A stretch of DNA of 64,000 bases. It comes from Terriglobia bacterium. GTDB taxonomy: Bacteria; Acidobacteriota; Terriglobia; JAJPHL01; JAPKYU01. Positions 215-47,968 of the stretch are shown piece by piece. Every line of letters begins with the position of its first letter. The first letter of the stretch is position 1. The position numbers and the translations under genes are program-made. The notes below the pieces were generated by a model, which saw only the letters and a program-made list of their open reading frames with translations, was not told the origin of the DNA and made no database searches. Where the stretch lies: the NCBI GenBank assembly GCA_965223005.1, contig CBDCVK010000002.1:224001-288000 (forward strand), written 5' to 3'.

Positions 215-309
215 CACTTGGACGTATAGTCGGCTATCCGGACAAGTGACCCTCTACGCCCGCCAGGGTAGTAAGTCAGTTTCCGATAAACGCGTTATAC
301 GTCCAAGTG
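215..309 (+). repeat. Paired 34-bp palindromic recombination-like sites (95-bp element, loop type 1), copy 1
   Basis: Site A CACTTGGACGTATA-GTCGGC-TATCCGGACAAGTG at 215-248; inverted site B ends TATACGTCCAAGTG at 296-309, giving a perfect 14-bp terminal inverted repeat. Recurs elsewhere in the window. Confidence 0.85.
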
Positions 310-440
310 GGCGGCGTGGCAGCATAGGCAAACAATAACCGACCACTTGACGCTGCTACGGAGCCTGACAGATTGACGAATCAATTCGTTGCCAGGTGCG
401 GTATCATGGTCCCCATGCAGCCATGTTCACGAGAGGATTC

Positions 441-1406
441 ATGAATCGCAGAACTTTTGTGGGTAGCGCGCTGGCGAGCGTCGCCGCCCTCGGGACTTCC
501 GCTCGGGCGAGCAAGCTCAAAGCGGGCGACATTCCGACCAGGGTCTTCGGCAAAACCGGCGAAAAGCTCACCATCGTCGGCCAGGCCGGCTCCCGTTTCC
601 CCCTGATCTCGTTCGAGGAGGCCAAGCAAGTTACTCTGCGCGCCTACGAGTTGGGCATCAACTACTTCGATACCGCGCACGGCTATTGGGACGGCCGCTC
701 GGAAGAAGTTTATGGGGCGGTCATGCCGCCGTTCCGCAAAGAAATCTTCATCACCACGAAGTCAAAAAAGCGCACGCGCAAAGAAGCCGAGGAAGAGCTG
801 CACCTCTCGCTCAAGCGTCTCAAGACCGACTACGTGGATCTCTGGCAGATTCACTCGGTCAATAGCGACGAAGACTTGCAGAAGATCTTCGCTCCGGGCG
901 GCGCCATCGAGGCGTTCGAGGAGGCGAAGAAGGCCGGCAAGTGCCGCTTTATCGGATTCACCGGCCACCACGATCCCGATGCGCACCTGGAGATGCTGCG
1001 GAGTTACAAGAACTTCGACACGATCTTGATGCCGCTCCACCCGGCCGACCCCTCGTACCTCAGCTTCGAGACCAAAGTCCTGCCCGAGTCGATCAAGCAG
1101 GGTCTGGGCATCCAGGCAATGAAGTGCACGGCGAATGCCAAGCTGTTGCAGACTATGAGCCTGAACGATTGTCTGGCCTACGTGCTGAGCCTGCCGATCC
1201 ACTGTGCGACTTTGGGCGCGACAACCGTTGGTCAGATCGAAGACGACGTGCGCTTTGCTCAGCGGTTCAAGCCCATCGGCGATACCCAGATGAGCGCGCT
1301 GCGCAAGCGCGCCGAGCCGATCGCCGGCCCGCATCTGGAAACCTGGAAGCGTAATATCAAGACTGCGGACTACCGGCCGCCGCGCCCCGTCTATCAGGGC
1401 GACTAG
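441..1406 (+). CDS. Aldo/keto reductase with Tat-like signal peptide
   Basis: NRRTF twin-arginine-like start after GAGAGGA RBS; AKR motifs GINYFDTAHGY and SLKRLKTDYVDLWQIH. Confidence 0.85.
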   Translation: MNRRTFVGSALASVAALGTSARASKLKAGDIPTRVFGKTGEKLTIVGQAGSRFPLISFEEAKQVTLRAYELGINYFDTAHGYWDGRSEEVYGAVMPPFRKEIFITTKSKKRTRKEAEEELHLSLKRLKTDYVDLWQIHSVNSDEDLQKIFAPGGAIEAFEEAKKAGKCRFIGFTGHHDPDAHLEMLRSYKNFDTILMPLHPADPSYLSFETKVLPESIKQGLGIQAMKCTANAKLLQTMSLNDCLAYVLSLPIHCATLGATTVGQIEDDVRFAQRFKPIGDTQMSALRKRAEPIAGPHLETWKRNIKTADYRPPRPVYQGD

Positions 1407-1677
1407 CGGCAGCTGCGGACCTGCGCGGGCTTGTTTGCGTGGATCGCTTTCGAATTGAGTCAGATCATGAAGCCGCATCCCAAAAGGGTGCGGCTTTTCG
1501 CTTCTGAGGATGAACAGAGAGCAGAAAGATCCGACCAGCAGGAATCAGCCCAGCTAGACAACCTGTTTGATCAGTTGGCTGTGCACCTGAGCCACAGTCG
1601 CGGCCGCCTGGGCGGGCAATTCTGGGAAATGCCGGATAGGTCGCCACTAGCGGGCTAGCGTTTATCAATCCCGGTTT

Positions 1678-1781
1678 CACTTGGACGTATAGTCGGCAAA
1701 TCGGACAAGTGCCTACCTTGGGGCAGCGTCACTGCGTGATACGAGGGCACTTGTCCGGTTAGCGCGTTATACGTCCAAGTG
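1678..1781 (+). repeat. Paired 34-bp sites (104-bp element, loop type 2), copy 2
   Basis: CACTTGGACGTATA-GTCGGC-AAATCGGACAAGTG (1678-1711) and CACTTGTCCGGTTA-GCGCGT-TATACGTCCAAGTG (1748-1781). Confidence 0.85.
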
Positions 1782-1952
1782 GCGCACCGCTGAGCGGGTG
1801 GGGGTATGATCATTTCCGAGTGCGCCGTGACACGACCGGAATCATCGAAACTGGCGATGCGGCTGGTTCACCCTGCGTGCCACCCACCGGCTGATCGCTC
1901 CGCATGCGGAGAAACTTGGCTTCCGGGTGCTCTGCCAGGGAGCTGATTCGGT

Positions 1953-2000
1953 TAATACTGCTGCCTTCGCGTGATCGAGATCTGGGAGCCGAAGGACTTT
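1953..2000 (-). pseudogene. Remnant of tyrosine recombinase N-terminus
   Basis: Encodes KVLRLPDLDHAKAAVL, nearly the same as KLGLPDLDQAKAAVL of the recombinase fragment at 26934. Confidence 0.65.
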
Positions 2001-2062
2001 GGTGTTTTTCCAAGAATCGTTTAGAATCGGCACAGCAAGCTAGCATTCGGGGTAGGTATGCT

Positions 2063-5000
2063 ATGTTCATTCGTCCTTCGTGTCTTGTAATTCCGATTCT
2101 CTTTCTTGCGGCAACGGCTTCTTCGCCTGTGCCGGTTTCGGAATCGTCGCGTACCATTGATTTTCAGCGGGACGTTCGTCCCGTCCTCTCCGATAATTGT
2201 TTTCAGTGCCACGGCCCGGACAAGGGCACTCGCATGGCTGAGCTTCGGCTCGATACCCAGGATGGCGCCTTCGCCAAGCGGGCGAACGGAACAACGATCG
2301 TCCCAGGGGATCCGGAGGCAAGCCTGCTTTACAAGCGCATCACTCACGAGAACGAGAGGATGCGGATGCCGCCGGCTTATTCCAAGAAGGAACTGGCGAA
2401 AGAGCAGATTGGCGTACTACGGAGGTGGATCGAGGAGGGCGCTTCGTGGGACCAGCACTGGTCCTTCAAAGCGATCAAGCGGCCCAAACCTCCCGCAGTG
2501 AAGAACGAGGCCTGGGTCCGCAGCCCGCTCGACCGGTTTGTTCTCGCCCGGCTCCAGAAGGAAGGTCTTGCGCCTGCTCCCGAAGCCGACAAACGCACCC
2601 TAGCCCGCCGTGTGGCGCTGGATTTAACGGGATTGCCTCCCGACCACGGCACCCTCGAAAGCTTCTTGAGCGACACCTCGGAACAAGCTTATGAAAAACT
2701 GGTCGACCGGCTGCTAGACTCGAAGCACTGGGGCGAACACCGCGCCCGCTATTGGCTGGACGCAGCGCGTTACGGAGACACCCACGGTATTCACGTCGAC
2801 AACTATCGCGAGATGTGGCCCTACCGCGACTGGGTGATCCGGGCTTTCAACGACAACAAACCGTTCGACGAATTTACGGTCGAACAGATCGCCGGCGACT
2901 TGCTGCCCAACCCGACGCTCGATCAACTGGTTGCCACCGGTTTTCATCGCTGCAATATCACGACGAACGAAGGCGGTGTCATCCCTGAGGAATACGAAGC
3001 TGTCTACGCCAAGGACCGAGCCGATACTACGGGCACCGTCTTTCTCGGTCTTACGGTCGGGTGCGCCACTTGCCACGATCACAAGTTCGACCCGATTCGA
3101 CAGCGCGAGTTCTATTCCCTGACGGCGTTTTTTAGGAACACGACGCAGTATGTGATGGACGGCAATATATCGGATCCGCCGCCCATCCTGGTTGTCCCCA
3201 GCGACAAAGACCGCGGCCGCTGGCATGAGCTCCGCCGGGAAGCGGCGGAAACCGAAGCGAAGATCAAAAACCGCACCGCGTCGGTCGACGAAGCGTTCGC
3301 GGAATGGCTTGCGAGCAAGGAACATCGTTCCCTGCAGACCCCGCTCGAAGAGTCCGCGGAGCTGCTGACGCTGAACCTTGACGATGAACCCGCGATCGAC
3401 ATGGGCGGAAGGCGGAAGAAAATTGCACTTCATCAGGGAGCCGTGGTCGATGAAGGGCCGAACAAAAACCAGCCGGCGCTGCGGTTCGGGAAGGAATCGT
3501 GGGCGGAGCTTCCTCCCTTGAAGCTTGACAGTGACACACCCTTTTCTATTGCGATGTGGGTTTACCAACCCAAGGTCGTAGGGGCCTTCGTGGTTGCCGG
3601 TCAGTACGATCCCGACGACGATTCCCGCGGATGGTCGATTGGCGTCGACGCTCGGCAAGTCACCTTTAGAATGACCGGCGAAAGGCCGGCGGGGCAAGAA
3701 AATCCGTCCGAAGTCACCGTTGTGCCCATCATCACGAAGCGGATGCCCGCGGGTGTGTGGACCCACATTACGGTAACCCACGACGGCTCCGGCGAGCGGG
3801 CCGGCCTGCGTATCTACACGAACGGTGATGTCGTAGAGGAGCAGGGCAGCGAGTTTTTCACGAAGGTGGAGGGGAGTATCCAGACCAACCGGCCTCTCTA
3901 TTTGGGCAGAGGAGTCACGAAGGGCAGAGGCGACCGCGACGAGCCCGAAGTCCGCTACTTCTCGGGCGGGGGCATAGCGGATCTTCGAGTCTTTAGTCGC
4001 CCGATCACGGTCCAGGAGGCCAAGGTTGTTTCGTTGTGGTCCGTGCTCCAAAGCGCGCGGGATAAGGAACCTGAAGAACTAAGCTCCGACGAGCGGGAAG
4101 CGCTGCGTCTCTACTACCTCAGCGTCAAGGACCAAGATTACCGCGAGCTCGTGGCGCGCAAGCAAGAGATCGATCGGGAGTGGCGGGAGGTCCGGCGGCG
4201 CGGGGGTGTCACACACGTGATGCGGGAGATACCGGACAAGGAGCCCGAGGCTCACGTTCTCTACCGCGGCCTGTATGACCAACCTCGGGAGCGTGTTACG
4301 GCAAACACTCCCTCGGCGTTACATCCAATGCCTGCGTCGTGGCCGCGCAACCGCATGGGGCTGGCTAAGTGGTTGGTCGACGAGGCGAACCCGCTGACAA
4401 GCCGTGTGATCGTGAACCGTTACTGGCAGGAAGTCTTCGGTGCCGGCCTGGTAAAGACCAGCGACGATTTTGGCTCGCAAGGGGAGTCGCCGTCTCACCC
4501 TGAGTTGCTCGATTGGCTGGTAGTCGAGTTCCGCGAATCGGGCTGGGACATCAAGCAGTTCTTCCGCACGCTCGTGACGTCCTCCACGTACCGCCAGTCC
4601 GCCCAAACGACGGCGGAAAAGCTCGATAAGGACCCGGAGAATCGGCTGCTCTCGCGCGGGCTCAGCTTCCGCATGGACGCTGAAATGATCCGCGATTACG
4701 CCCTGGCGGCGAGCGGCCTGCTGGTCCGCAAGATCGGCGGCCCGAGTGTGAAGCCCTATCAACCGGAAGGAGTCTGGAAAAGGGTGGCAATCACCATGAG
4801 CAACACCAGCTCCTACAAACAAGACTCCGGCGCCAAACTCTATCGGCGCAGTCTTTATACCTTCTGGAAGCGCTCCGCGCCGCCAGCCTCCATGGAGGTT
4901 TTCAATGCGCCGACACGGGAGCACACCACGGTGCGCCGCGAGCGAACCAACACGCCGCTGCAAGCGCTCGTCACGATGAACGATACACAATTCGTCGAAG

Positions 5001-5296
5001 CGTCACGCTATCTCGCACAGAAAGCCATGCGCGAGGCCGGAGATGACTTCGACCGGCGGCTGGATTACGTGACGACCCGCCTTCTTGCACGTGACTTCAG
5101 TCAAAACGAACGCGCGGTTGCGAAGCGGTCCTACAACAAATTCATCGGTTTTTACGGTTCAAACGCCGCAGAGGCAAAGAAGCTTCTTGCTGCCGGCGAG
5201 TCACCGCCCGATGAGGCGCTGTCCGTGACGGAGTCTGCAGCGTGGACCTTTCTGGCGAGCCAGATAATGAATTTGGACGAGGTGTTAAACAAGTAG
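2063..5296 (+). CDS. Planctomycete cytochrome c / DUF1549 / LamG-like / DUF1553 (PSD1) protein
   Basis: CFQCHG and CATCHDHKFDP heme-type motifs, WGEHRARYWLDAARYGDT, central LamG-like segment, NTPLQAL; start placed at signal peptide MFIRPS. Confidence 0.88.
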   Translation: MFIRPSCLVIPILFLAATASSPVPVSESSRTIDFQRDVRPVLSDNCFQCHGPDKGTRMAELRLDTQDGAFAKRANGTTIVPGDPEASLLYKRITHENERMRMPPAYSKKELAKEQIGVLRRWIEEGASWDQHWSFKAIKRPKPPAVKNEAWVRSPLDRFVLARLQKEGLAPAPEADKRTLARRVALDLTGLPPDHGTLESFLSDTSEQAYEKLVDRLLDSKHWGEHRARYWLDAARYGDTHGIHVDNYREMWPYRDWVIRAFNDNKPFDEFTVEQIAGDLLPNPTLDQLVATGFHRCNITTNEGGVIPEEYEAVYAKDRADTTGTVFLGLTVGCATCHDHKFDPIRQREFYSLTAFFRNTTQYVMDGNISDPPPILVVPSDKDRGRWHELRREAAETEAKIKNRTASVDEAFAEWLASKEHRSLQTPLEESAELLTLNLDDEPAIDMGGRRKKIALHQGAVVDEGPNKNQPALRFGKESWAELPPLKLDSDTPFSIAMWVYQPKVVGAFVVAGQYDPDDDSRGWSIGVDARQVTFRMTGERPAGQENPSEVTVVPIITKRMPAGVWTHITVTHDGSGERAGLRIYTNGDVVEEQGSEFFTKVEGSIQTNRPLYLGRGVTKGRGDRDEPEVRYFSGGGIADLRVFSRPITVQEAKVVSLWSVLQSARDKEPEELSSDEREALRLYYLSVKDQDYRELVARKQEIDREWREVRRRGGVTHVMREIPDKEPEAHVLYRGLYDQPRERVTANTPSALHPMPASWPRNRMGLAKWLVDEANPLTSRVIVNRYWQEVFGAGLVKTSDDFGSQGESPSHPELLDWLVVEFRESGWDIKQFFRTLVTSSTYRQSAQTTAEKLDKDPENRLLSRGLSFRMDAEMIRDYALAASGLLVRKIGGPSVKPYQPEGVWKRVAITMSNTSSYKQDSGAKLYRRSLYTFWKRSAPPASMEVFNAPTREHTTVRRERTNTPLQALVTMNDTQFVEASRYLAQKAMREAGDDFDRRLDYVTTRLLARDFSQNERAVAKRSYNKFIGFYGSNAAEAKKLLAAGESPPDEALSVTESAAWTFLASQIMNLDEVLNK

Positions 5297-5390
5297 AATC
5301 AGGGCGGCTGACCCGGCGCACGCCTGTCGTGTGCCCCATCCGGCTTCCGCGCCTGACGTTCGGCTTTACTCGCTCAGGGAGATTTTGAAA

Positions 5391-6857
5391 ATGCATCCAT
5401 ACAAAGAAGCAGTCCTGGCGGAAACCAGACGGCAGTTCTTCGCCCGAGGCGCCAAGGGTATCGGCGGAATCGCCTTGGCCAGCCTTCTGGCCGAGAACAG
5501 CTTCGGTGCACCCGGAAGTGACGAATCATTTGGCGGTTTGCCGCACTTGCCTCACTTCGCCCCGAGAGCGAAACGGTGTATCTACCTCCACATGATGGGT
5601 GCGCCGCCGCAGATGGATCTGCTCGACTACAAGCCCAAGATGAAGGACTGGTACGACAAGGATCTTCCGGAATCGGTGCGCCGGGGGCAGCGTCTGACGA
5701 CCATGACATCCGGACAGGCGCGCTTCCCGATCGCACCTTCTGTCTTTCAATTCAAGCAGCACGGCCAAAGCGGCACGTGGATTTCCGAGCTTTTGCCCCA
5801 CACCGCAAAGATGGTCGACGACATGGCCGTTATCCGCTCGATGCACACCGAAGCAATCAACCACGAACCTGCGATCACCTTCATCCAAACCGGTCGGCAG
5901 GTCGTTGGGCGGCCGTGCATCGGATCCTGGATTTCCTATGGGCTCGGTAGTATGAACCGCGACTTGCCCACGTTCGTCGTGATGAACGCCGAGAAGAGCC
6001 ACCCCAAGGCAGGTGTGCAAGCGATCTCGGCAAAAATGTGGAGCTCAGGGTTCCTTTCTCCGAAGTACGCCGGCGTAGGTCTCCGCGGAGGCGCAGAGCC
6101 GGTGCTGTACATCAAGGATCCGGATGGGGTTTCCAGGGATCTCCGGCGGCAGATGCTCGACGGCCTCAGCGAGCTGAATCAGCTCCGGCACCAGAAGATC
6201 GGCAACCCCGAAACACTGGCACGAATCGAGCAGTTCGAAATGGCCTTCCGGATGCAGTCGTCGGTGCCGGAGATGGGTGACCTCTCGAGTGAGCCGGAAA
6301 GCACCTTCAAACGCTGGGGCGAAGAAGCGAGGCAGCCCGGCAAGTTTCAAAACGCGGCGCTGATGGCGCGGCGGCTCGTCGAGCGCGGTGTGCGGTTTGT
6401 CCAGATCTATCACCGCGGCTGGGACGTACACTCCTTCGCGCCCGAAGTGCTCCCTGCGCAGGCCGCAGACGTCGACCGCGCTGCCTGGGCCCTAATCCAA
6501 GATCTGAAGGAGCGCGGCCTCTTCGAAGACACGCTCGTCATTTGGGGCGGCGAGTTCGGGCGGACAATCTACTCCCAGGGCAAACTGACGCCGACCGATT
6601 ACGGCCGCGACCACCATCCGCGCTGCTACAGCCTATGGATGGCCGGCGGCGGCATCAAAGGCGGCGTCGTTCACGGCGAAACGGACGACTTCTCCTACAA
6701 CATCGCCAAAGACCCGGTCCACATCCGGGATTTCCAAGCGACGATCCTGCACCTGTTTGGCATCGACCACGACCGCTTCACCCACAAGCACCAAGGACTG
6801 GACGCCAAGCTGACAGGTGTCGAACCAGCGCACGTGGTGAAAGAAGTCCTGGCGTAA
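5391..6857 (+). CDS. DUF1501 domain protein
   Basis: TRRQFF Tat-like motif, ARRLVERGVRFVQ, GWDVH, GEFGRT, GRDHH; typical partner of the PSD1 gene. Confidence 0.92.
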   Translation: MHPYKEAVLAETRRQFFARGAKGIGGIALASLLAENSFGAPGSDESFGGLPHLPHFAPRAKRCIYLHMMGAPPQMDLLDYKPKMKDWYDKDLPESVRRGQRLTTMTSGQARFPIAPSVFQFKQHGQSGTWISELLPHTAKMVDDMAVIRSMHTEAINHEPAITFIQTGRQVVGRPCIGSWISYGLGSMNRDLPTFVVMNAEKSHPKAGVQAISAKMWSSGFLSPKYAGVGLRGGAEPVLYIKDPDGVSRDLRRQMLDGLSELNQLRHQKIGNPETLARIEQFEMAFRMQSSVPEMGDLSSEPESTFKRWGEEARQPGKFQNAALMARRLVERGVRFVQIYHRGWDVHSFAPEVLPAQAADVDRAAWALIQDLKERGLFEDTLVIWGGEFGRTIYSQGKLTPTDYGRDHHPRCYSLWMAGGGIKGGVVHGETDDFSYNIAKDPVHIRDFQATILHLFGIDHDRFTHKHQGLDAKLTGVEPAHVVKEVLA

Positions 6858-7049
6858 AGCACTTGGTTTGAGTTGCAAATTCGCGTTCGCATACTGCGCG
6901 ATTCTGCGGAAAGGTTAAGCTGCGTTCACGCGGCTTTGTCTTCACTAGGCCAGCCGTTTTACGGCTGGTATTGTTCCGAGTTGCCGCAAGCGGCAGAAAC
7001 TAACGAAGTCTGGTAGATGTCTCGCCGGCGTGGTCACCCTCAGGCGACC

Positions 7050-7132
7050 ACATTGCCTTCCACGAAGACGTACTTGAATGTCGTCGAGAACTGGTTCGAA
7101 AAGTTCGGGGACCAGCAGGGTGGGGCGCAATA
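7050..7132 (+). pseudogene. Possible C-terminal remnant of a PD40-repeat Ser/Thr kinase
   Basis: Ends LNVVENWFEKFGDQQGGAQ*, resembling the LNVVLNWFEEL tail common in acidobacterial kinases; no upstream body. Confidence 0.3.
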
Positions 7133-7513
7133 ACAGCCCACATTCCTGTTGAATCCCTCTCCCACAGCAGACCCGGTTCGAGAGCGAGCAATCCACTCAT
7201 CTACAGGTCCATACGGTCGTCGAAGTCGCAAGATCCCGGTAAGTCGGCAAAGCGGACAAGTGGTCCGTCGGGTTCAGGTCCCCCGAAACGGGCACTCCTC
7301 AACGATTGACGCGCACTCTCCAGAAAACACGCCACTCCGGTCCCTTCTGTGCTTGTCTGGGCTTGGCCCAATCGGCTGCAAGGGCCAACAATACCGGACC
7401 GGATAGATTGCCCCTAACCCCCAGTTCTTTCCGGTCCGGCTGCCAACTCCCGAATAGTCGCCAACTAAGAAACTATCGCAGCGCTTTGCCGCTCCTCGTC
7501 TGACGTCGGCGGG

Positions 7514-7570
7514 CACTTGGACGTATAGTCGGCTATCCGGACAAGTGCCAACCTGGAGGCAGCGTCACTC
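7514..7570 (+). repeat. 34-bp site A plus partial type-2 loop, copy 3
   Basis: Exact CACTTGGACGTATAGTCGGCTATCCGGACAAGTG at 7514-7547; an extra half-site GTCGGCAAAGCGGACAAGTG lies at 7243-7262. Confidence 0.85.
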
Positions 7571-7662
7571 TAATAGCTGAGAGCAGATAGGTCCCGCCTT
7601 GTCGCCGTCCGACAAGAGACTCGCCGCTCGCCACAGCATGTGACGACCTGCACCTTTGGGTG

Positions 7663-7700
7663 ATTTCCGATTTCTGAGTTGTAGCGGGGGCTGGTACCAT
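7663..7700 (+). repeat. Third repeat family (TTCCGA..GGGCTGGTACCAT), partial copy
   Basis: Matches the 5' half of the 76-bp repeats at 8611 and 13544. Confidence 0.55.
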
Positions 7701-7770
7701 AGCAGCTAGGAACTACGGCGTATCTGGCATTGGAAAATCAATGTCTCAAACAGACAAAGGAGGTACCGGC

Positions 7771-8559
7771 ATGAGGCGTAATAAACTGAGGGACCTTCTG
7801 AACGCCGGCCAGCCCACCATCGGCACTCACCTTCACAGTTCCTGGCCATCCGTTGTGGAAGTCGTCGGACATACCGGCATGTTTGACTACGTTGAATTCG
7901 TTTCCGAATACGGGCCGTTTGACTTATATGCGCTAGACAACTTTTGCCGGGCAGTGGAGTTATTCGATTTGTCGGCGATGATCAAAGTTGATCAGGAACC
8001 GCGACGCTTCCTGGCCCAGAGAGCCATCGGCGCTGGCTTTCAGAGTGTTCTTTTTGCGGACTGCCGCACCGTCGACGACGCCCGCGAATGCGTGAGGGCT
8101 GTGCGCCCCGAGACACCGGAGTCAGGCGGTCTTCACGGCGTCGCGCTGCGCCGAAGCACCTACATGTTGCATGCTGGGATGCCCGAGTACGTCCGGGCGT
8201 TGAATGAAGTCGTCGTAGCCCTAATGATCGAAAAGAAATCGGCAGTGGAGCAACTGGAGGAAATCGTCTCGTTGGGCGAGATTGATATGGTTCAGTGGGG
8301 ACCGGCAGATTACTCAATGAGCATTGGCCAGCCCGGGGCCTGGGATTCCCCGGAAGTCAGGGCCGTTGAACGCAGGGTCATCGAGACTTGCTTGAAGAAG
8401 GGCATACCGCCACGTGCCGAGATCGACACCCTGGACAAGGCCAAGTATTACCTGGACATGGGCGTGCGCCACTTTTGCCTCGGTACAGACATCATGATTC
8501 TCCACGGGTGGCTGAAGGAAAATGGTGAAAGCTTACGGAATGCTATTTCTGACTCATAG
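7771..8559 (+). CDS. HpcH/HpaI aldolase family protein
   Basis: GGAGG RBS; motifs MIEKKSAVEQLEEI and QWGPADYSMSIG. Confidence 0.85.
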   Translation: MRRNKLRDLLNAGQPTIGTHLHSSWPSVVEVVGHTGMFDYVEFVSEYGPFDLYALDNFCRAVELFDLSAMIKVDQEPRRFLAQRAIGAGFQSVLFADCRTVDDARECVRAVRPETPESGGLHGVALRRSTYMLHAGMPEYVRALNEVVVALMIEKKSAVEQLEEIVSLGEIDMVQWGPADYSMSIGQPGAWDSPEVRAVERRVIETCLKKGIPPRAEIDTLDKAKYYLDMGVRHFCLGTDIMILHGWLKENGESLRNAISDS

Positions 8560-8610
8560 TCCAGCCGCCTCAGTGGGTGTGGCGGGCGCCACATAACGTC
8601 ACTATGTGTC

Positions 8611-8686
8611 ATTCCGAATTACCGAGTGGCGGCGGGGGCTGGTACCATCACCCGCCCGCGCTCGGCCCCAGGGCAGAAGCCTCGCA
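8611..8686 (+). repeat. Third repeat family, 76-bp copy
   Basis: ATTCCGAATT..GGGCTGGTACCATCA..GAAGCCTCGCA, colinear with 13544-13619. Confidence 0.65.
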
Positions 8687-8756
8687 AACCCACCCAAGCA
8701 GCACCATACCCCGCTCTTGCCACAATTACGTGTGTGTTGGGGTTTCTGAAGTTTCC

Positions 8757-9428
8757 CTATCGGCTCCGGCGGGAGTGCCCGCGCTGAAGGATCGTCAAAT
8801 GAACGCGAGCGACGATGTGCATGTAGCCCCCTGCCGTCGCGTACCGATCTGCGGCAGCGGCCCTGATGTGAGCGAGCGCGTCGGCTTTTCGCCCGAGCGC
8901 ATCGAAATGCAAACCGACATACAGGTGGGCGTAGAACTTCGATTGGCCGCCGGCGCCGGCCATGGCCAACACCTTGTCGGGGCTGATCGCGCCTTGGAAC
9001 ATCTGGTAGACCTCGCGCATCGGAACGCGCGCGTCGGGTCCCACTGGCAGAAGGGCCGCCCTCGCCTTCTCGACCGATTCCGCACGCGTCACGCAGAGAA
9101 AGTGCCAGGCCGCGTTTTCCACGTCGTTCGGGTTCACGGCGCGGTGGGATTCAAACTGCGCGCGACAGTCACGGTAGCGACCTGCGTAGTACAGAGCGAT
9201 GCCGCGCTGCCAGAGATAGGGCGCCTTATCAGGCACAAGCTTGGCCACATTGTCGAACTCGGCGACCGACTCCGCTACGCGGCCGCCCTGGAAATGGGCA
9301 ATGGCACGATCGAGGGCACGTTCCGCCGCCGACTGTGCGTTGGCCGCGGCGGCGAACGCGAACATCGCCGACAGGGTGAGAATTTGGCGCATCCGGGCCG
9401 GGGTCGACGACCGGATGACGGCCGACAT
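8757..9428 (-). CDS. TPR-containing protein (NlpI-like)
   Basis: WQRGIALYYAG, NPNDVENAAWHFLC, FYAHLYVGL; signal peptide present. Confidence 0.75.
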   Translation of the reverse strand: MSAVIRSSTPARMRQILTLSAMFAFAAAANAQSAAERALDRAIAHFQGGRVAESVAEFDNVAKLVPDKAPYLWQRGIALYYAGRYRDCRAQFESHRAVNPNDVENAAWHFLCVTRAESVEKARAALLPVGPDARVPMREVYQMFQGAISPDKVLAMAGAGGQSKFYAHLYVGLHFDALGRKADALAHIRAAAADRYATAGGYMHIVARVHLTILQRGHSRRSR

Positions 9429-9441
9429 TTTGGCCTTCGCG

Positions 9442-10674
9442 TCAGCGGCGGAGATCGAGACACACGAGGGTGTTTTCGTTTCGCACATACAGGAATCCGT
9501 CGGCGATCGCCGGGTAGGCCCGGACGGTCGGCGGAAGGATCTGGGCGCGTACCAGCGGCCGGAAGGCATCGGGCGACGCTGTGGCCATCACCAGCTCGCC
9601 GCTTTCGCGCAGGATTAGCAATCGATTGCCGACGAGCGTGACTGTGCCGGCACGGAACCGATCCTCACTCCAGCGAACCTTGCCCGTCGCCAGCTCGACC
9701 GCGCGGAAACTCGGGCCGAACTCCTGACGTCCGTGAAACCCGTACAAATGTCCGTGTTGGTACGCACTCGTGGCGTAGTGATTCGAGAGCGCCTCGTCGG
9801 ATGCCCATAGGTCGATAAGCTTCGAACCGTCCACGCGCAGCACCGCCGCGCCCGGTCCGTACTCGGCCGACACGAAGATCAGGTCCCCGATTACCAGCGG
9901 CGTCGCGACGTTGACCGACGACGCCTGCCGCGCCCGCCACGCTCGCCGAAACTGCACCGTCCCTGTCGCCGGATCGAGGCCGACGAGACCGTTGCGCGTG
10001 AGGAAGATCGCAGATCGGCGGCCGACAATCGTCGCGCCGGTCGCCGACGAATAGCTCGCCTCATCGTCGGTGGCCGTCCAGAGCACTTTGCCGTTTTTCA
10101 CGTCGAACGCGACGATGCCGGCCCTTCGGCCGCCGATGTTGGCCAGAAGCCTTCCATCCTCGACCAGCGGCGAACCTGCGGCACCGAAATAGCCTTTCGG
10201 CACGCTAAACCGCGCCCTGGTGTCTTCGCTCCAGATCCGCTTGCCGTCCGCGAGGCCGATCGCGTGAAGCTGCCCCTCTGCTCCGAACGTGTATATGACG
10301 TCATCCACGACGACGGGCACCGCCCGCGGCCCTTCGTCGAACCCGAAATCGTCGCGATACGAGGTGGGATAAGAATACCGCCACTGGCTCGCCCCGGTGC
10401 GCGCGTCGAGGGCCTCAACCACTTCGCTGTCGGATACCCGATGAAACAGGATCACTCGGCCTTGAACGACAACCGGGCCGCTCAACCCGGCGCCGATGGA
10501 CTTGCGCCAAACCTCACGCGGGCCGCTCGCACCCCAGGTCTCCGCGAGCGCCGGGCCCCGTGAGACGCCGTTGCGCTCTGGGCCGAGGAACTGCGGCCAG
10601 TCCTCAGCAGCCGTTTGGATCGCGATAGCGAACCCGACGACGACCGATAACATCAGTTGATGTCGAATAGACAT
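9442..10674 (-). CDS. PQQ-like beta-propeller repeat protein (BamB-like)
   Basis: DWPQFLGPERNG N-terminal motif; repeated ALD..TG..W tryptophan-docking motifs. Confidence 0.88.
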   Translation of the reverse strand: MSIRHQLMLSVVVGFAIAIQTAAEDWPQFLGPERNGVSRGPALAETWGASGPREVWRKSIGAGLSGPVVVQGRVILFHRVSDSEVVEALDARTGASQWRYSYPTSYRDDFGFDEGPRAVPVVVDDVIYTFGAEGQLHAIGLADGKRIWSEDTRARFSVPKGYFGAAGSPLVEDGRLLANIGGRRAGIVAFDVKNGKVLWTATDDEASYSSATGATIVGRRSAIFLTRNGLVGLDPATGTVQFRRAWRARQASSVNVATPLVIGDLIFVSAEYGPGAAVLRVDGSKLIDLWASDEALSNHYATSAYQHGHLYGFHGRQEFGPSFRAVELATGKVRWSEDRFRAGTVTLVGNRLLILRESGELVMATASPDAFRPLVRAQILPPTVRAYPAIADGFLYVRNENTLVCLDLRR

Positions 10675-10802
10675 ATTCGATTGGAGTCGAATTCGTGATC
10701 CGGAATCTTGTCGGTCCCCGCCTGAGACTGAGTATGCCGGGCAGGAATTCAGCACCCCGAGAGCCTGAACACCGTGGGATGCTCATCACGATTCCTCCCT
10801 GG

Positions 10803-13448: not shown

Positions 13449-13543
13449 ACCTTCGTGCCCGATGGCCTGGCCGGCCAGCGGGGACTTGGGAGGTGCGCTC
13501 CCACAAAGGTAGCTCCAAACAGTCATATTGACCTCATATTAGT

Positions 13544-13619
13544 ATTCCGAATTCCAAGATTCTGGCTCGGGCTGGTACCATCAGGACCCGCGGCCGACCC
13601 GCGTGGCGGAAGCCTCGCA
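13544..13619 (+). repeat. Third repeat family, 76-bp copy
   Basis: Colinear with 8611-8686. Confidence 0.65.
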
Positions 13620-13809
13620 CGTGCGGTGTGATGGCGCCCGGCGATTGTGACGTACTTTGTGACATAACCCTGCCATCCAAGCCCAACTAACCCCTTGTCA
13701 CTCGGTGTGCGTCAGTGTCACTCGTCGGAGGCACAGAATGGGGGGATGCACCGCTGCGCGTATCACTTGGGCTCACTCCCTCTCACTCCTTACTACGTCG
13801 CTTCCTGAA

Positions 13810-13854: not shown

Positions 13855-13955
13855 CTCTTCTTCTCGGGGAATCAACAGGTTGGCGGGAATTGGCGTTAGG
13901 CGAGATTGGGCCGTTTTGGTGCAGGTGTGCAAGAAGTGTGCAAGATGGGACATGG

Positions 13956-17549: not shown

Positions 17550-17634
17550 GACTTGGCTGTATAGTCGGCTATCCGGACAAGTGATCCTCTATGCCCGCCA
17601 GGGTAGTGGTCAGTTTCCGATAAGGGCGTTATAC
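17550..17634 (+). repeat. Paired-site element (type 1), copy 4, truncated after GTTATAC
   Basis: GACTTGGCTGTATA-GTCGGC-TATCCGGACAAGTG plus type-1 loop and GTCAGTTTCCGATAAGGGCGTTATAC. Confidence 0.8.
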
Positions 17635-24600: not shown

Positions 24601-24665
24601 AGGGCGGAGGAACGGGGTTGGTTCCTCAGGAGTCGGTTAGCATTTGCCTATGCTGCCACGCAGCC

Positions 24666-24716
24666 CACTTGGATGTATAACGCGCTTATCGGAAACTGAC
24701 CTACTACCCTGGCGGG
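24666..24716 (-). repeat. Site B plus partial type-1 loop, copy 5
   Basis: CACTTGGATGTATA-ACGCGC-TTATCGGAAACTGA..CTACCCTGGCGGG. Confidence 0.82.
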
Positions 24717-25109: not shown

Positions 25110-25676
25110 TGTCCTTTCTCCCTTCTGGTTTGTCCCGCGCGGCAAACAGCACCAACCCACGCCGCTCACTCTTATCTTGACGACGACAACCTACCAAAGC
25201 TCCAAAACACTTAAGTGGGGGTGGGCGACCTCCATCCCGCAACTGCCCTCACAGCACCCGGCTTGATGGTCCGAGCGCAGGTCCATCTCGTCGCAGCAGT
25301 GAATTTGACCCTTCTCCCTCTGGGCCTGCGCCCGGACTACCTCTGCTTGCATGTAAGCTGCCAGCTCTTTCTTTTCTGTAGACCTCGCGCCGTTTGTCCT
25401 GGCAACGGACGCAAAATCCCTTTGATTTCATAAGAATGCAATCAGCTTTCAAGAGGGAGGGAAGAGGTGAATTCTCTTACAGGCAAGGATGCAGGACGGT
25501 GGAAGAAGTGAAAAAGTTTTCCCAAGAGAGAACTTTTTCCAGACTGCGCTCGTGTGTAAGACAAGACGGCAGGCAGATCGCGCGGCATTATCTCGCTGTA
25601 GCGAAGCTGGTTTCTCCAAGACTTCTTCGATAGGTCCTCACTCGTCGGTTAGCGTTTGCCGATGCTGCCCCGCCGC

Positions 25677-25696
25677 CACTTGGACGTATAACGCGC
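25677..25696 (-). repeat. Site B half, copy 6
   Basis: CACTTGGACGTATA-ACGCGC with the ~35-bp flank shared by copies 1 and 5. Confidence 0.78.
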
Positions 25697-26851: not shown

Positions 26852-26871
26852 CACTTGGCCATATAACGCCC
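26852..26871 (-). repeat. Site B half, copy 7 (recombinase-proximal)
   Basis: CACTTGGCCATATA-ACGCCC, about 60 bp upstream of the recombinase ATG. Confidence 0.7.
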
Positions 26872-26933
26872 ATACCATCCTCGAACTCACCCGATTCCTA
26901 ATCTCAAGGCCAGCCGTCAGGAGGCGGCTGACC

Positions 26934-31120: not shown

Positions 31121-31341
31121 GGTCCTACACTAGCGAGGTGGGGCTATCTGCCATAATAGCAGCGCTTCACGCTTGGCGCGGCACAAAGGGGTCCGGACCT
31201 GGACATCACCACCGCGACAGGTGGAGGGGCCCAGGCGCGAGTTCGAGGGGCATCCTATGCAATCCTGGCTGGATCATAGGTAAACACTAGCCCGTTAGTG
31301 TGGACTATCGTCTTTGTGTGCTTCCCCGAAGGGAATCCAGG

Positions 31342-31375
31342 CACTTGTCCGGTATGCGCGTTATATGTCCAAGTG
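31342..31375 (+). repeat. 34-bp site B, copy 8
   Basis: CACTTGTCCGGTAT-GCGCGT-TATATGTCCAAGTG, followed by TTCCGAGTGCGCCGTGACACGA shared with ~1815-1836. Confidence 0.82.
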
Positions 31376-31418
31376 CATTACTTCCGAGTGCGCCGTGACA
31401 CGAATCAGGGAATACGAC

Positions 31419-45265: not shown

Positions 45266-45446
45266 CGGATCGCCCCTGATTGTACCTGATTATTCGGGTG
45301 ATGCGTTTCCGGAAGTGGCGTGCCCTGATGAACCTGTGCCACGAGGAGTGATAATTTAGAGCGGTTTAGATTCACCTTATCGAAAGTCCGCCGTCGCCTG
45401 CCATATCCACAAGTTCCAAGGAGCCCAATCAGTCAAGGGTGGCCCC

Positions 45447-45830
45447 GTGTCAAGCCCCCGCATGCCGGATCACCAGCAGAAGTGGGAGACTATTGGGCCC
45501 AGCAAGAAAGAAGCCGCAGCCGCCCTTTCGAAGCACCTGGCATCCATCAACACAGGCAAGTTTGTAGAATTCAAGCCCAGCTCATTTTCCGCCTTTGCCG
45601 AGCACTGGCTGGCGGGGATGCGGCAGCAGCTCAGGCCTCGCACCTGGGCAAGCTACAAATCCCTGTTGGACGTTCACATCCAACCCAGCTTTGGAACCTT
45701 CCCGCTCCACACCATCACTCGGCCCATGCTGAAAGAATTTGTCAGCGGGAAAACGCAGACCGAAAAGTTGGCACCGAACACCGTGCGCAACATCCTCCGG
45801 CTGCTGCATAAGCTGTTTGAGGACATCGCG
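45447..45830 (+). pseudogene. Phage/ICE integrase N-terminal (SAM-like) fragment
   Basis: KKEA..AL, F..FAEHWL, LRPRTWASYKSLL..HI.P.FG..L..IT, LAPNTVRNILRLL..LFE; catalytic domain missing. Confidence 0.75.
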
Positions 45831-46253
45831 CTCAACAGTCCTGCGACCGCTTGGGTGGCCTATCGTGATTTGCGTGGGTGCCTTCCTCGGAACGGTGCAA
45901 GCCAAGGGTCCCCTCTTGGGTAAGGCAGTCGGTATCGGATTGGCTGGTTTCTGCTGGGCGCGCGGCTCGGGGGGTGCGGGCCCGTTGGCGCCACGCAGAA
46001 ACCGAGGGACTGGCGAAGCACCTGTAGCTCCTGGGCGCTTGTGGTGCGGGCCAGCTTCCGGCTGTTGCGGAAGCCGTCCAGCTGCTCCACCGAGGAGAGG
46101 GCATGGTGTCTGAGCTTGCAACGAGAGGGGGAACTGCGTATGCTTCTAGCCTGAAATCGGAAATTTCGGTTGACACGTTACAAGTCCCCAGGCGGCAGGC
46201 CCGTATGACCTGCCCCCCGATACAGCCAAAGCGAAAAGGAGGTCACACCCAAT

Positions 46254-46499
46254 ATGCGTACTTCAGAGCGAGTCATCTTTGCGCTAGCCATCCTGATCCT
46301 GACGTTCTTCACAATTGCCACTTACGAAAGCAATCGCGAGCTTCGAGTCGAGTTCAACCACATGGAGGAACGACTACAGGAAGCTGAAACAGTCAACAAA
46401 GCCACTCTGGAGCTAATCGCAGATTTGCAAGGTAAGGCGCAGTCTGCGTCAGAGACGATGCAACTGGTCAAGGGAGCCGGTTCTCAAAGCCCACGATAG
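46254..46499 (+). CDS. Small membrane-anchored coiled-coil protein
   Basis: AGGAGG RBS, N-terminal TM, heptad pattern. Confidence 0.5.
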   Translation: MRTSERVIFALAILILTFFTIATYESNRELRVEFNHMEERLQEAETVNKATLELIADLQGKAQSASETMQLVKGAGSQSPR

Positions 46500-46891
46500 G
46501 CCAATCGAGCTTAGGACTCCCCTGCAGCACCTCTTCGGTCTGGGCAAAGGAATGTAGCTCCTCCACGAACCAACCCCAAACGAATGCCCCACGCACAAGT
46601 GAACAGTGGACCGGGGGGTGATCCCAGGGGGACCTGCTCAGCGACTCCCGCTTTCTCTCCACGCTTCCCTACAATGCCGATTGTCAGTCCAGGAAGGCCA
46701 CCACTTGCATCCCGTCCGCATTTGAGGGATCTCGTCCCTCGTTGAGGACACGTGGGCAAGACCTAAGTAGAAAGCGAGAAGATCAAATTGGACGCACGCA
46801 CCTTCTGGATGGGTGTAGCTTATTGGTATGTGTTCAGGACTTCCGGCCAGAGGGCTTACATCTGGTATTGCTCGAAGGGAGGAAGCAAAGC

Positions 46892-47455
46892 ATGAAAAAG
46901 ATGATAATCATCAGTGTTCTCCTCTTGGTACTGGTTCCTTCCGCCTGGACCCAGAAGCTCAAGATTGATCCCGAGCAGCGCTACCTGTTGTTGGCCACTA
47001 AGAAGACCTCCACGATGCAGAAAGAGCTCGACGAAGCGGCCGCGCAGGGCTTCAGGATCCTGGTGGGTTCGCCGACCAGTGGTACAGAGATAGCATTATT
47101 TCTCGAACGCGTTGCGAATCCGACGAATGCTTATACATATCGACTCCTGGCGACAAGCCGGACCGGCACAATGCAGAAGGAGCTGAGTGAAGCTGCAGTA
47201 GATGGGTTTCGCCTGCTGCCACGGACAATGATCGCAAAAAAACCGGTTTTTGGGGAAACGGAAATCGTGGTCATCCTCGAACGCCCAGCGAAGGTTGACA
47301 AGCTGTACAGGTACAAGCTCCTTGCCACAAATCTGACCTCGACGTTGCAACGGGAAGTTGCCCAAGCCGAGGCCGACGGCTTTGTTCTGGTTGGGATGGT
47401 CAGTCGCGATGAGCACATGGTGATTATGGAAAAGGAAACACAAATAAAGGAGTGA
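46892..47455 (+). CDS. Secreted protein with three internal repeats
   Basis: Signal peptide; Y.LLAT..T.T.Q.E..(E/Q)A...GF three times. Confidence 0.7.
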   Translation: MKKMIIISVLLLVLVPSAWTQKLKIDPEQRYLLLATKKTSTMQKELDEAAAQGFRILVGSPTSGTEIALFLERVANPTNAYTYRLLATSRTGTMQKELSEAAVDGFRLLPRTMIAKKPVFGETEIVVILERPAKVDKLYRYKLLATNLTSTLQREVAQAEADGFVLVGMVSRDEHMVIMEKETQIKE

Positions 47456-47873
47456 AGTACGGAGGCCCACGGAATGCTACCCAGGAGAGGCCATGGTGAT
47501 CTGAGCTTGTGCTGAACTCAGGGACCGGGCGATCGCCAACTTGGCAGTTGCCACTATAGGGAGCGTGTTCTCGGTCACCAACAACCTGCGCGTGGAGCGC
47601 CGCAACGCAGGACCATGCTTAGCCTCCCGGCCTGAAAAGAGATGGCTGCCTAAAGGCACTGCTCGATGGTGACCCATCTCCGTCCTGGCGCCGCAGAAAC
47701 TGGGCTGCGCGCGCCAGGACTTTTTCTCTTGGCCCCCGCACGATCTCGCACCTCGGCAAGGCTTGCAAGGAACTGCCCGCCGTAACGGCGTGTGAGGGGA
47801 CGCTTATCCAGACACAGGAAAATCCCGTAGTCGGTGCGGAAATGATCATACCCCCGCTCGCTCACCGGTGCGC

Positions 47874-47968
47874 CACTTGGATGCATAACGCCCTTATCGG
47901 AAACTGACCCACTACCCTGGCGGGCGTAGAGGGTCACTTGTCCGGATAGCCGACTATACATCCAAGTG
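47874..47968 (-). repeat. Paired-site element (type 1, 95 bp), copy 9
   Basis: Reverse complement of copy 1 with few mismatches; both flanks match those of copy 2. Confidence 0.85.

Follow-up and report, generated by a model that had tools for sequence, protein, structure and literature searches.

We have detected a family of 34-bp palindromic sites which brackets accessory genes throughout a class of Acidobacteria. The sites are of two fixed types, nearly always oriented towards each other, and a dedicated Xer-like recombinase probably acts on them. We give about an even chance to a dedicated tyrosine-recombinase module system, which would probably be dormant or served in trans in this genome. 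If the recombinase reading is true, this is a previously undescribed gene-shuffling system.

Site structure

The window is the whole stretch analysed, 64,000 nucleotides long. A first-pass annotation had described nine loci and a half-site in it, and all of them are found where it had placed them. Each site is formed by an L arm CACTTGGACGTATA, a 6-bp core and an R arm TATCCGGACAAGTG, with a total of 34 bp. There are two core classes, as annotated, and both are conserved across families: type A (GTCGGC) and type B (ACGCGC or ACGCCC). The L and R arms differ at fixed positions. The geometry and this conserved asymmetry agree with the suggestion that these are sites of a simple tyrosine recombinase. 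Allowing up to 3 mismatches, the L-arm 14-mer has 17 matches in the 64,000-nt window vs 2.21 +/- 1.51 expected (maximum 6) from 100 dinucleotide-preserving shuffles, none of which (0/100) reached 17. The features of the window are the following:

200..343, + strand: composite element with u2 tail (200-213), A site (215-248, GTCGGC) and uB1-type flank to about 343; the A site is followed by a 27-nt spacer d1 and an inverted B' site (277-309), an A/B element of 95 bp (215-309)
1628..1861, + strand: composite element with u1 (1628-1677), A site (1678-1711), 36-nt spacer, inverted B site (1748-1781, ACGCGC) and uB2 (1782-1861); the A/B element has 104 bp (1678-1781)
1950..1994, - strand: 15-aa remnant of a recombinase N-terminus, LRLPDLDHAKAAVLT
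7243..7262, + strand: half-site, A core and R arm without L arm, preceded by the tail of a u1 block
7399..7604, + strand: composite with a solo A site; u2far/u2 (7399-7513), A site (7514-7547), d2L (7548-7604)
17550..17634, + strand: degenerate A/B' pair; degenerate A (17550-17583), d1 spacer, truncated B'
24631..24716, + strand: B' variant; uB1 flank, B' site (24666-24698), part of the d1 spacer
25634..25696, + strand: uB1 flank, then L arm and B core (25677-25696); R arm diverged
26852..26876, + strand: recombinase-proximal site; L arm CACTTGGCCATATA, B core ACGCCC, 5 nt of R arm (ATACC)
26908..26933, + strand: inverted repeat around the ribosome-binding site, immediately ahead of the recombinase start codon
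26934..27881, + strand: chimeric ORF; residues 1-62 recombinase N-terminus, residues 82-312 Soli_cterm (TIGR03437)
31271..31403, - strand: composite with a solo B site; dB (31271-31310), B site (31342-31375), partial uB2 (31382-31403)
47837..48012, - strand: inverted composite; uB2, B' (47874-47906), d1 spacer, A (47935-47968), u1; the A/B element has 95 bp (47874-47968)

The annotated locus at 24666 is a B' variant whose R arm is TTATCGGAAACTG and whose partner A site is missing. Those at 25677 and 26852, also among the nine loci, consist only of L arm and B core; at 26852 the 5 nt of R arm are followed by a different arm (ATCCTC...). Nor is the conserved unit limited to 34 bp, as had been supposed: Each site lies within one of a few flank blocks of 25-115 bp, which are conserved as well. 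The u1 flank at 1628-1677 has TAG in all three frames, and the u2far/u2 flank at 7399-7513 holds an older degenerate site at about 7445-7465. All four pairings of two upstream and two downstream flank types occur around A sites, and the element at 47874 has an interior resembling that at 215 and flanks resembling those at 1678. Once genomes G001 and G003 are added, the R-arm variant is inconsistently linked (by eye) to the downstream flank, so the core is not established as the exchange point. The flank motif cacggcgcactcggaa is also present directly beside the L arms of B sites in family f8 genomes, and some B sites have an R-arm-like half-site beside the L arm, as a direct repeat.

Single sites form no stable fold (A, z = -2.7; B, z = 0.0). 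A/B doublets fold as strong hairpins, with z from -4.7 to -8.8: The 95-nt hairpin at 215 has z = -4.96, the element at 1678 z = -8.79 and the one at 47874 z = -4.69. No compensatory changes have been found within sites. When an A and a B site form a pair, their L arms co-vary little, and they differ at 2-4 of the 14 positions in 12 of the 16 doublets, without compensation. The unstable folding of single sites, the lack of compensatory changes and the little co-variation fit protein-bound duplex sites and not hairpins.

Distribution and orientation

The genome contains 28 full sites. All but one (27/28) fall outside ORFs of at least 100 aa, crudely called and covering 85% of the genome, so the annotation of all sites as intergenic stands with one exception. 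Genes are truncated and fused at sites. Beyond this genome, as the annotation had proposed to check, sites are carried by all four genomes of the genus and by 47 of the 121 Terriglobia genomes sampled (1-44 copies each). Both core classes are conserved in the four genus genomes and in families f1, f2, f5, f6 and f8. Site-bearing contigs are large, up to 1.67 Mb.

The annotated head-to-head arrangement extends beyond the window: Neighbouring A and B sites at most 15 kb apart have opposite orientations in 16/16 cases in G000, 5/5 in G001 and 10/10 in G003 (31/31 in the genus, according to our reading of the site coordinates). In distant genomes the orientation is opposite in 7 of 8 cases, and on contig C9 nine sites alternate strictly as B-,A+. 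Most sites are solo, kilobases away from their partner; in distant genomes, the usual picture is a single gene with a solo 34-mer at either side.

Sites are concentrated in variable islands. The genes between them are diverse, with no common enzyme gene and no transposase of their own. The stretch 1-49117 of the window is a mosaic; its pieces are scattered in G001 and G003 with 90-98% identity and adjoin syntenic core. In G001, the gene at 31350-33249 has an A/B' pair on one side and a B site on the other. The counterparts of the window's AKR module in G001 and G003 lie more than 2.9 kb from any full site. Module shuffling, as annotated, agrees with the geometry, the core classes, the orientation and the flank mosaic, but in the cases examined the homologous segments shared by G000 and G001 stop 350-750 bp short of the sites. 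The contigs retrieved for junctions of circles, excisions or inversions are all short and break at repeats; no such junction is found among them.

The associated recombinase

Both annotated recombinase remnants are present and match one family. The first is the 62-aa portion of the chimeric ORF (26934-27119), which belongs to a family of 316-aa Xer-like proteins (LPDL..WYCSEPRL), such as that coded by L090:1498-2448. Its Xer-like affiliation comes from the XerC model (114 bits vs a cut-off of 335), and its best solved relatives are XerC-like and XerD. The second, at 1994-1950 on the minus strand, has 15 aa with 80% identity (tblastn) and is weak on its own because E = 0.15. Further recombinase fragments that adjoin sites come from other, unrelated integrase lineages.

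In 4 of 10 Terriglobia loci, the full-length gene has a B-type core and arm 50-175 nt upstream of its start, and the arrangement seen at 26852 precedes the full-length gene in G118 and G052. A regular expression for B core and arm matched 9 of 70 metagenomic upstream regions vs about 1.5 expected; a visual count gives about 30 of 70. Conservation begins at the ACG of the B core in all 16 aligned metagenomic loci, which also have an inverted repeat comparable to that at 26908-26933, as do 10/10 loci of the class (by eye). Sites are found in 17 of 23 genomes with the recombinase vs 30 of 98 without it (Fisher p = 2e-4, a value which overstates the evidence because related genomes are not independent). 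The annotated link between sites and recombinase is thus favoured by the upstream B-type core and the co-occurrence, but a full-length gene has not been found in the four genus genomes (G000, G001, G002, G003), of which the G001 and G003 assemblies are 97% complete, nor in the site-rich genomes G048, G119 and G021.

Proposed system

The 34-bp sites would be double-stranded core sites of a dedicated 'simple' (Xer-like) tyrosine recombinase, with a 6-bp crossover region between 14-bp arms of different sequence. By compatibility they would fall into class A, with a GTCGGC-like core, and class B, with an ACGCGC-like one. Since A and B alternate in opposite orientation, the chromosome would be divided into modules, those with R arms inside alternating with those with L arms inside. 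Recombination of A x A or B x B in direct orientation may produce a circle holding a pair of adjacent modules plus a single site of the other class, and this circle could then integrate again wherever there is a site of the class that recombined; inverted sites of the same class would invert the segment. The 95-104-bp A/B pairs may be junctions with an 'empty' inner module, and a pair together with the adjacent gene would look like a cassette and its site. Because the recombinase gene begins immediately behind a B-type core, its place would be at the edge of such a module. As the genus has only remnants of it, its sites would be recent relics or be served in trans, perhaps by an element outside the assemblies.

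Alternative explanations

A less likely explanation, although the strongest of the others, is that sites and flank blocks are REP/BIME-like or MITE-like repeats spread by another enzyme, with both the module pattern and the rearrangements due to ordinary homologous recombination of the copies. BIME and REPIN layouts include inverted doublets and a mosaic of few flanking motifs. Intergenic dispersed copies, some nested or degenerate, head-to-head doublets with hairpins and a BIME-like mosaic of few conserved blocks would all be expected. So would the 185-bp stretch of the composite at 7399..7604 which is 88% identical to a locus of G122, from a different family, since a repeat moving as a unit would look alike. 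The absence of the candidate recombinase from most site-rich genomes and the homology breaks off the sites point in the same direction. A RAYT/REP origin does not agree with the absence of Y1 transposases (RAYT) from G000 and G003, though 108 of 121 class genomes have one, and none of 12 Y1 loci carries a site. An IS91 origin fares no better, with IS91-type elements in 0/4 genus genomes (in a search without positive control). The multi-copy IS families seen in the genome (IS3-, IS256- and IS4-type) have their copies 0.6-1.5 kb from sites and do not end in them, compared by position only, and no target duplication is visible by eye at any copy. Moreover, solo B sites do not fold and show no compensatory changes, distant genomes have mostly solo 34-mers around single genes, and homologous recombination does not explain core classes and an opposite-orientation rule kept throughout the class.

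It is improbable that the sites are additional dif-like sites on which the host XerC/XerD act just as they do in the dif modules of Acinetobacter. The logic of alternating opposite sites, distinct arms and a 6-bp spacer is shared, and so are modules without their own recombinase, in the part of PMC13141974 consulted. XerC and XerD homologues are present, and this explanation would account for activity in genomes without the dedicated recombinase. Nevertheless, the canonical dif motif is found in 81 of 121 class genomes, with a single match in 76 (6 control matches). G001 and G003 have one dif each, ATAAGAGATATTATGTCAACT, with no resemblance to the A/B arms, and in 74 of 121 genomes (0/16 with sites in family f7) no A/B site is found, though all should need dif.

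Equally improbable is that the sites bind a conserved Terriglobia regulator, nucleoid or segregation protein and merely travel with accessory DNA. The palindromic 14-6-14 geometry, the conservation in the class with 1-44 copies, the intergenic position and the conserved sequence adjoining the L arm would suit it. Against it, sites cluster in variable islands and not upstream of a coherent regulon, they adjoin genes at the 5' as well as the 3' end and in either orientation, inverted doublets have empty spacers, and two types follow a strict mutual orientation rule. Gene truncation and fusion at sites, and a B core which marks the conservation boundary ahead of the recombinase gene, also disagree with it.

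An attC site consists of two simple sites in inverted orientation, with pairing of the outer and inner arms and the non-complementary cores as an internal loop. That the A/B doublets are attC-like, folded single strands for an integron-type integrase, in cassettes without integrase, is very improbable in spite of this shared layout and of three direct-orientation doublets 1.5-1.9 kb apart (C2:222300, 224215, 225678): No integron integrase is found (the best TIGR02249 match has 86.8 bits vs a cut-off of 265 and is a Xer homologue), most sites are solo, the L arms of doublets differ without compensation, and by eye against the attC end consensus A ends are mismatched and B ends are one mismatch off. 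The annotation had set apart canonical attC and dif sites, which is in agreement with these results.

Comparison with known systems

The dedicated recombinase system proposed above resembles integrons in having single-gene cassettes next to a composite palindromic element, a specialised site ahead of the recombinase gene, with one half in common with the cassette sites, and arrays in variable chromosomal regions. It differs in the absence of IntI, in its mostly solo, duplex-type sites instead of folded doublets, in its two core classes and in a recombinase which reads away from its site, co-directional with the neighbouring B-type half-sites 24666 and 25677.

The core sites of lox, FRT and dif have two inverted arms around a short asymmetric crossover region. 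Our sites share this organization, 34 bp overall, and the R-arm-like direct half-site by the B L arm recalls the third element of FRT. On the other hand, they are present in many copies and two classes dispersed over a whole class, and are known from sequence alone. With REPIN and BIME they share inverted doublets and a flank mosaic of few motifs.

Their imperfect palindromes and intergenic position are also found in REP/RAYT systems, as far as described in the part of PMC3733652 consulted; by the same source, our sites differ in the lack of a GTAG or CGTC tag and in having tens of copies, while REP have hundreds. Single site units here also fold weakly or not at all.

The plasmid dif modules of Acinetobacter are described, in the part of PMC13141974 consulted, as having pdif sites whose two arms differ and enclose a 6-bp spacer, and as carrying cargo but no recombinase. 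Neighbouring pdif sites are opposite, so two module classes must alternate, and movement is thought to require matching spacers (PMC13141974). Distinct arms, 6-bp spacer, opposite neighbours and cargo without recombinase are common to both systems. In our case, the arms have 14 bp instead of 11, the A/B sequence is unrelated to the canonical dif of the genus, and the sites are found on large contigs and not on small plasmids. The spacer is not free, it belongs to two conserved classes tied to orientation, and the candidate enzyme is a separate Xer-like paralogue.

Sites in the window

The full site is 34 bp long: a 6-bp core lies between an L arm (CACTTGGACGTATA) and an R arm (TATCCGGACAAGTG). 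Two types are distinguished by their core. In type A the core is GTCGGC and the R arm starts with TATCC or TTACC; in type B the core is ACGCGC or ACGCCC and the R arm starts with TAACC. A variant of type B, called B', has TTATCGGAAACTG as its R arm. The L arm, with up to three mismatches, is found 17 times in the window (2.2 expected), while the maximum in 100 shuffled sequences is 6. Every locus named in the first-pass annotation has been found, and a block-by-block map describes them as follows.

Site loci in the window
215-309: complete head-to-head A/B element
1678-1781: complete head-to-head A/B element
7514: solo A site
17550: decayed pair
24666: L arm and core of the B side left
25677: L arm and core of the B side left
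26852: L arm and core of the B side left
31342: solo B site
47874-47968: complete head-to-head A/B element

A perfect 75-bp direct repeat (17286-17360 and 17383-17457, with a 97-bp spacing) is found just upstream of the decayed pair at 17550.

Distribution in the genome, the genus and the class

The source assembly (G000) has 3.24 Mb in 10 contigs, and the window is C2:224001-288000 in it. A loose full-site search detects 28 distinct full sites in the assembly, 17 A and 11 B. Clusters are seen on C2 at 136-140 kb and 218-272 kb (the cluster of the window), on C9 at 78-113 kb and on C10 at 1569-1577 kb. The sites had been described as all intergenic: this holds for 27 of the 28, which lie outside the ORFs called by a crude ORF and GC3 script covering 85% of the genome, and there is one exception. 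Both types are present in the other three genomes of the genus, with 20 sites in G001, 5 in G002 (62% complete) and 36 in G003 at up to three mismatches; the control gives 0. Orientation is strictly conserved: adjacent A-B pairs within 15 kb, counted from coordinates, are opposed in 31 of 31 cases in the genus (16/16, 5/5 and 10/10). A clear case is contig C9, whose nine sites alternate as B-,A+ without a break across 35 kb.

Further genomes were scanned, as the first-pass annotation had proposed. A degenerate pattern with 18 specified positions, allowing up to two mismatches, matches 47 of 121 sampled Terriglobia genomes with at least 90% completeness; the reversed control pattern matches 9 genomes, so some of the single matches are due to chance. 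Families differ: 13 of 17 genomes have matches in f5, 8 of 16 in f8, 7 of 16 in f6, 2 of 18 in f4 and 0 of 16 in f7. Several genomes are site-rich, such as G048, G066 and G119, with 11, 10 and 9 copies, and more at three mismatches. Both core classes are kept across the class, in the forms GTCG[GCT][CG] (A-like) and AC[CG]G[CG]N (B-like). G008 has a third core, AAGGGC, which G118 has in six identical copies. These six are identical 33-mers (L100 and five other contigs), each within a repeat of about 105 bp with a B-like core, and two of them, 3.4 kb apart, flank an amidohydrolase and a histidine phosphatase.

Loci fetched from eleven distant genomes have intergenic sites on either side of single genes or short operons, and A and B are opposed in 7 of 8 adjacent pairs. 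Conservation extends into the flanks: a sequence ending in ..GACTGTTTCAATC precedes many A sites, and in families f1 and f8 the sequence before B sites is ..ACGGCGCACTCGGAAA(Y)(R)ATC. An A locus of a family f8 genome (G122) is 88% identical to window 7420-7604 over 185 bp. The exact A-site pattern has 0 matches in viral contigs. Class tallies include unpublished genomes: G098 in the site scan, the Y1 transposase scan and the recombinase count, G090 in the Y1 and dif scans and G074 in the Y1 scan. G098 is one of the 17 genomes having both recombinase and sites; otherwise no claim depends on unpublished genomes.

Genes between the sites

Among the cargo in the window are genes for an aldo/keto reductase (AKR), a PSCyt/PSD1 protein with its DUF1501 partner, an aldolase, a PQQ protein, a PEP-utilising enzyme, a phosphodiesterase, KatG, a pirin, a YtxH protein, and GGDEF, FHA and PilZ proteins, as well as several truncated genes. 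Genes bracketed by sites in distant genomes include a beta-lactamase-fold protein, an RNase T-type exonuclease, Ser/Thr kinases, methyltransferases, a glyoxalase and DUF3179. No enzyme gene is common to the modules. One module contains an IS30-type transposase, which belongs to an ordinary IS. In three family f5 genomes (L064, L069 and L075), paralogous genes for Ser/Thr kinases with PD40 repeats adjoin sites, a recurrence which hints that site-bounded modules contribute to paralogue expansion. Two regions of about 125 bp, where an FHA-domain gene and its GGDEF neighbour have their 5' ends (29215-29340 and 30608-30726), are 77-82% identical and may be a duplicated regulatory region. No Rfam families or tRNAs were found in the window.

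The Xer-like recombinase

Two remnants of a tyrosine recombinase had been reported next to sites, and both are present.

Recombinase remnants in the window
1994-1950, minus strand: 15-aa recombinase remnant
26934-27119: recombinase N-terminus, 62 residues, fused to a Soli_cterm domain

Full-length relatives, of 316-318 aa, are found in 23 of the 121 class genomes. They are Xer-like 'simple' tyrosine recombinases, far under the XerC and XerD cut-offs, and an atlas search matches mostly acidobacterial clusters with generic names. The proposed association between recombinase and sites is borne out in part. Sites are found in 17 of the 23 genomes with the gene and in 30 of the 98 without it (Fisher p = 2e-4, a value which overstates the evidence since related genomes are not independent). 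On the other hand, no full-length copy is found in G000-G003, nor in G048, G119 and G021.

A B-type site precedes the gene in 4 of 10 class loci. G000, G118 and G052 have the L arm, the B core and TA(M)(Y)C, followed by a different arm (..TCCATC..). The B site of G084 is whole, and in G118 an additional full site follows just after the stop codon. A metagenomic set of 80 recombinase loci gave 70 non-redundant upstream regions, 9 of which match a regular expression for B core and arm start (about 1.5 expected); by eye, about 30 of the 70 have a core and an R-arm-like motif. When 16 loci are aligned, they vary until an invariant ACG is reached; there a conserved ACGGGC-nACTCTGACC begins, followed by a hairpin enclosing the RBS and by the ATG in 16/16. 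A crossover at the B core would produce such a boundary at ACG. The RBS-enclosing inverted repeat stands directly before the start codon, at window 26908-26933 and in loci among L089-L097 and L143-L181; it is seen by eye in 10/10 class loci and is present in all 16 aligned metagenomic loci. It suggests translational control of the recombinase.

The reading we favour, to which we give an even chance of being right, is that the sites belong to a two-class core-site recombination system with a dedicated Xer-like recombinase. It would resemble dif modules and be unrelated to dif, and in this genus it would be recently extinct or served in trans.

Possible exchange and island context

Sequences flanking A sites are of two upstream types (u1 and u2) and two downstream types (d1 and d2), and all four combinations are found in G000. 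The element at 47874 shares its interior with the one at 215 and its outer flanks with the one at 1678. There is an older decayed site in u2, and u1 looks like a site centre, which indicates that layers have accumulated. We have also compared R-arm variants with downstream blocks by eye, in the manner of a four-gamete test: linkage is suggestive in G000 and not in G001 or G003, and this argument has been dropped.

Window positions 49118-64000 are syntenic with G001:C4:2106314-2120785 (94-97% identity). Positions 1-49117 have no synteny in G001, and pieces of them are dispersed in G001 and G003 with 90-98% identity. The variable island thus ends at about 49.1 kb, some 1.1 kb beyond the last site. 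Several comparisons involve the sites directly. At one orthologous locus of G000 and G001, a 72-bp indel removes an A site and 39 nt. In G001 the gene at 31419-33206 has an A/B' pair on one side and a B site on the other. A 6-kb segment that two A sites flank in G001 has a site-free counterpart in G000, and homology stops 357 and 714 bp from the A sites; neither G001 nor G003 has a full site near the AKR module. These last two cases argue against a clean site-bounded picture. Public runs of studies P10 and P11 contain 67-79% of the words sampled from window 1-10000. Logan contigs of four public runs, compared with window 1-20000, have joints with sides of 34 nt or less or between repeat copies and are uninformative on recombination.

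The main rival is that the elements are a repeat family mobile as a unit, and that the shuffling is due to homologous recombination. The doublets do carry terminal inverted repeats. Nevertheless, no target-site duplication is seen by eye at any copy and the IS elements seen near sites do not include them, so that ends of a known IS or MITE with target duplications, which the first-pass annotation had named as an outcome contrary to its view, are not what we find. We regard the repeat-family explanation as unlikely, though a real competitor of the two-class recombination system.

Other features should be mentioned. Four copies of a sequence resembling a tRNA 3' end (..GGTTCAAATCC..) are located at 13810-13858, 14640-14688, 17181-17229 and 23110-23158, and ARAGORN detects no intact tRNA; they resemble scars left at attachment sites by islands that integrated into tRNA genes. 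Another site-bearing slot at C2:447 kb comes directly after a tRNA 3' end. Three multi-copy IS families, with 99% identity, are found in G000.

Multi-copy IS families in G000
C2:56003-57162: IS3-type
C9:82612-84049, as an example of about ten 1.44-kb copies: IS256-type
C10:1171423-1173081: IS4/IS1380-type

Of 14 loci inspected in G001, 7 contain the IS3-type element, and in 5 of the 14 its distance from sites is within 0.6-1.5 kb, which may be mere island enrichment.

Comparison with dif sites

A dif search, also proposed in the first-pass annotation, finds that canonical dif is unlike the A/B arms, and use of the sites by XerCD is less likely than use by the dedicated enzyme. The canonical motif is itself common in the class: it is found in 81 of 121 genomes, with a single match in 76 (control 6). 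Passages of Kono et al. 2011 (PMC3025954) give canonical dif as predicted in three of three Acidobacteria. Dif-like sites (ATAAGAGATATTATGTCAACT) occur once each in G001 (C4:400159-400179) and G003 (C2:2981719-2981739), the latter being the only one in this two-contig assembly. No canonical dif was found in G000, probably because of an assembly gap; a dif-like match at C10:1630195 is the promoter/start region of a greA-like gene. GC skew is uninformative on the position of the terminus.

Folding

Doublets form strong hairpins (z from -4.7 to -8.8). A single A site folds weakly (-6.1 kcal/mol, z = -2.7) and a single B site does not fold (-1.6 kcal/mol, z = 0.0). In 12 of 16 doublets the A and B partners differ from each other at 2-4 positions of the L arm without compensation, and changes within sites are also uncompensated. 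The poor folding of single sites and these uncompensated changes make the sites look like duplex protein-binding sites, not selected hairpins. We consider a role as sites of some other DNA-binding protein less likely; the sites have the core-site geometry of simple tyrosine recombinases, in which two inverted arms flank an asymmetric spacer of 6-8 bp. An attC-like nature is less likely too: doublets fold with an internal loop at the cores, and their ends misfit the attC consensus. The best match to the integron integrase model TIGR02249 in G000 has 86.8 bits, against a cut-off of 265, and is a Xer homologue.

Other mobile elements

Single sites differ from REP units in having no stable hairpin, and no GTAG/CGTC tag is seen by inspection. 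Acidobacteria-specific Y1 transposases (RAYT/TIRYT) with flanking TIRs are reported in PMC3733652. Y1_Tnp is found in 108 of 121 class genomes, but not in G000 or G003, and none of 12 class Y1 loci has a site, so this link is rejected here; in Koribacter, the TIRs of ORF1552 in that paper may yet prove identical to the sites. The IS3-, IS256- and IS4-type elements are 0.6-1.5 kb from sites; we set them apart by position, not by end sequence.

IS91-type transposases (Y2_Tnp) were found in none of the four genomes of the genus, in a search without positive control; a local tblastn was also negative. An IS91-family element of 2154 bp, with a tyrosine recombinase followed by a Y2 transposase, is present in G021 (L074, C7, 3550-5787), inserted in the B arm of an A/B doublet, and a second identical copy elsewhere has no site. 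It starts 52 nt from the A site, which is outside the 2154-bp repeated unit, and we have rejected it as site mover. Other integrase fragments abutting sites (C10:114346, C10:1105450, and L044, L045 and L047 in G003) are mutually 23-45% identical, hence not one family.

Significance and relation to known systems

Acidobacteria are among the most abundant soil bacteria, and to our knowledge little is known about the movement of their accessory genes. Among the papers found in literature searches, none has a title or abstract dealing with these sites, or with sites of this recombinase family, in Acidobacteria. More tentatively than for the two-class system as such, we propose that Terriglobia may have a cassette-exchange system of their own, parallel to integrons and Acinetobacter dif modules and independent of both. 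It would use A and B 34-bp cores with accessory flanks, in strict mutual inversion. A dedicated Xer-like recombinase gene would lie at a module edge behind a B-type core, its translation controlled by an RBS-sequestering hairpin. Single genes and operons, including the expanded paralogue families typical of Acidobacteria, would be moved between species and families of the class. We hold this fuller picture to be possible rather than probable.

If the sites are live, they would add to integrons and dif modules a third natural system of cassettes or modules, chromosomal, class-wide and with a simple two-class compatibility rule. They would allow gene flow to be mapped in uncultured Acidobacteria, by site-to-site PCR or pangenome boundaries, and offer a handle on island mosaics and paralogue expansions; they might also yield a tool, in the form of a new orthogonal recombinase/site pair. 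Should they be a repeat family instead, they are still useful to mark variable regions, and they cause breaks in the assembly of these MAGs.

The known kind to which the system would belong is that of tyrosine-recombinase cassette or module systems. Acinetobacter dif modules (PMC13141974) have inverted neighbouring sites and two alternating module classes, and the same is found for the A and B sites described here. One difference lies in the arms: those of the A and B sites are unlike the canonical dif of the genus.
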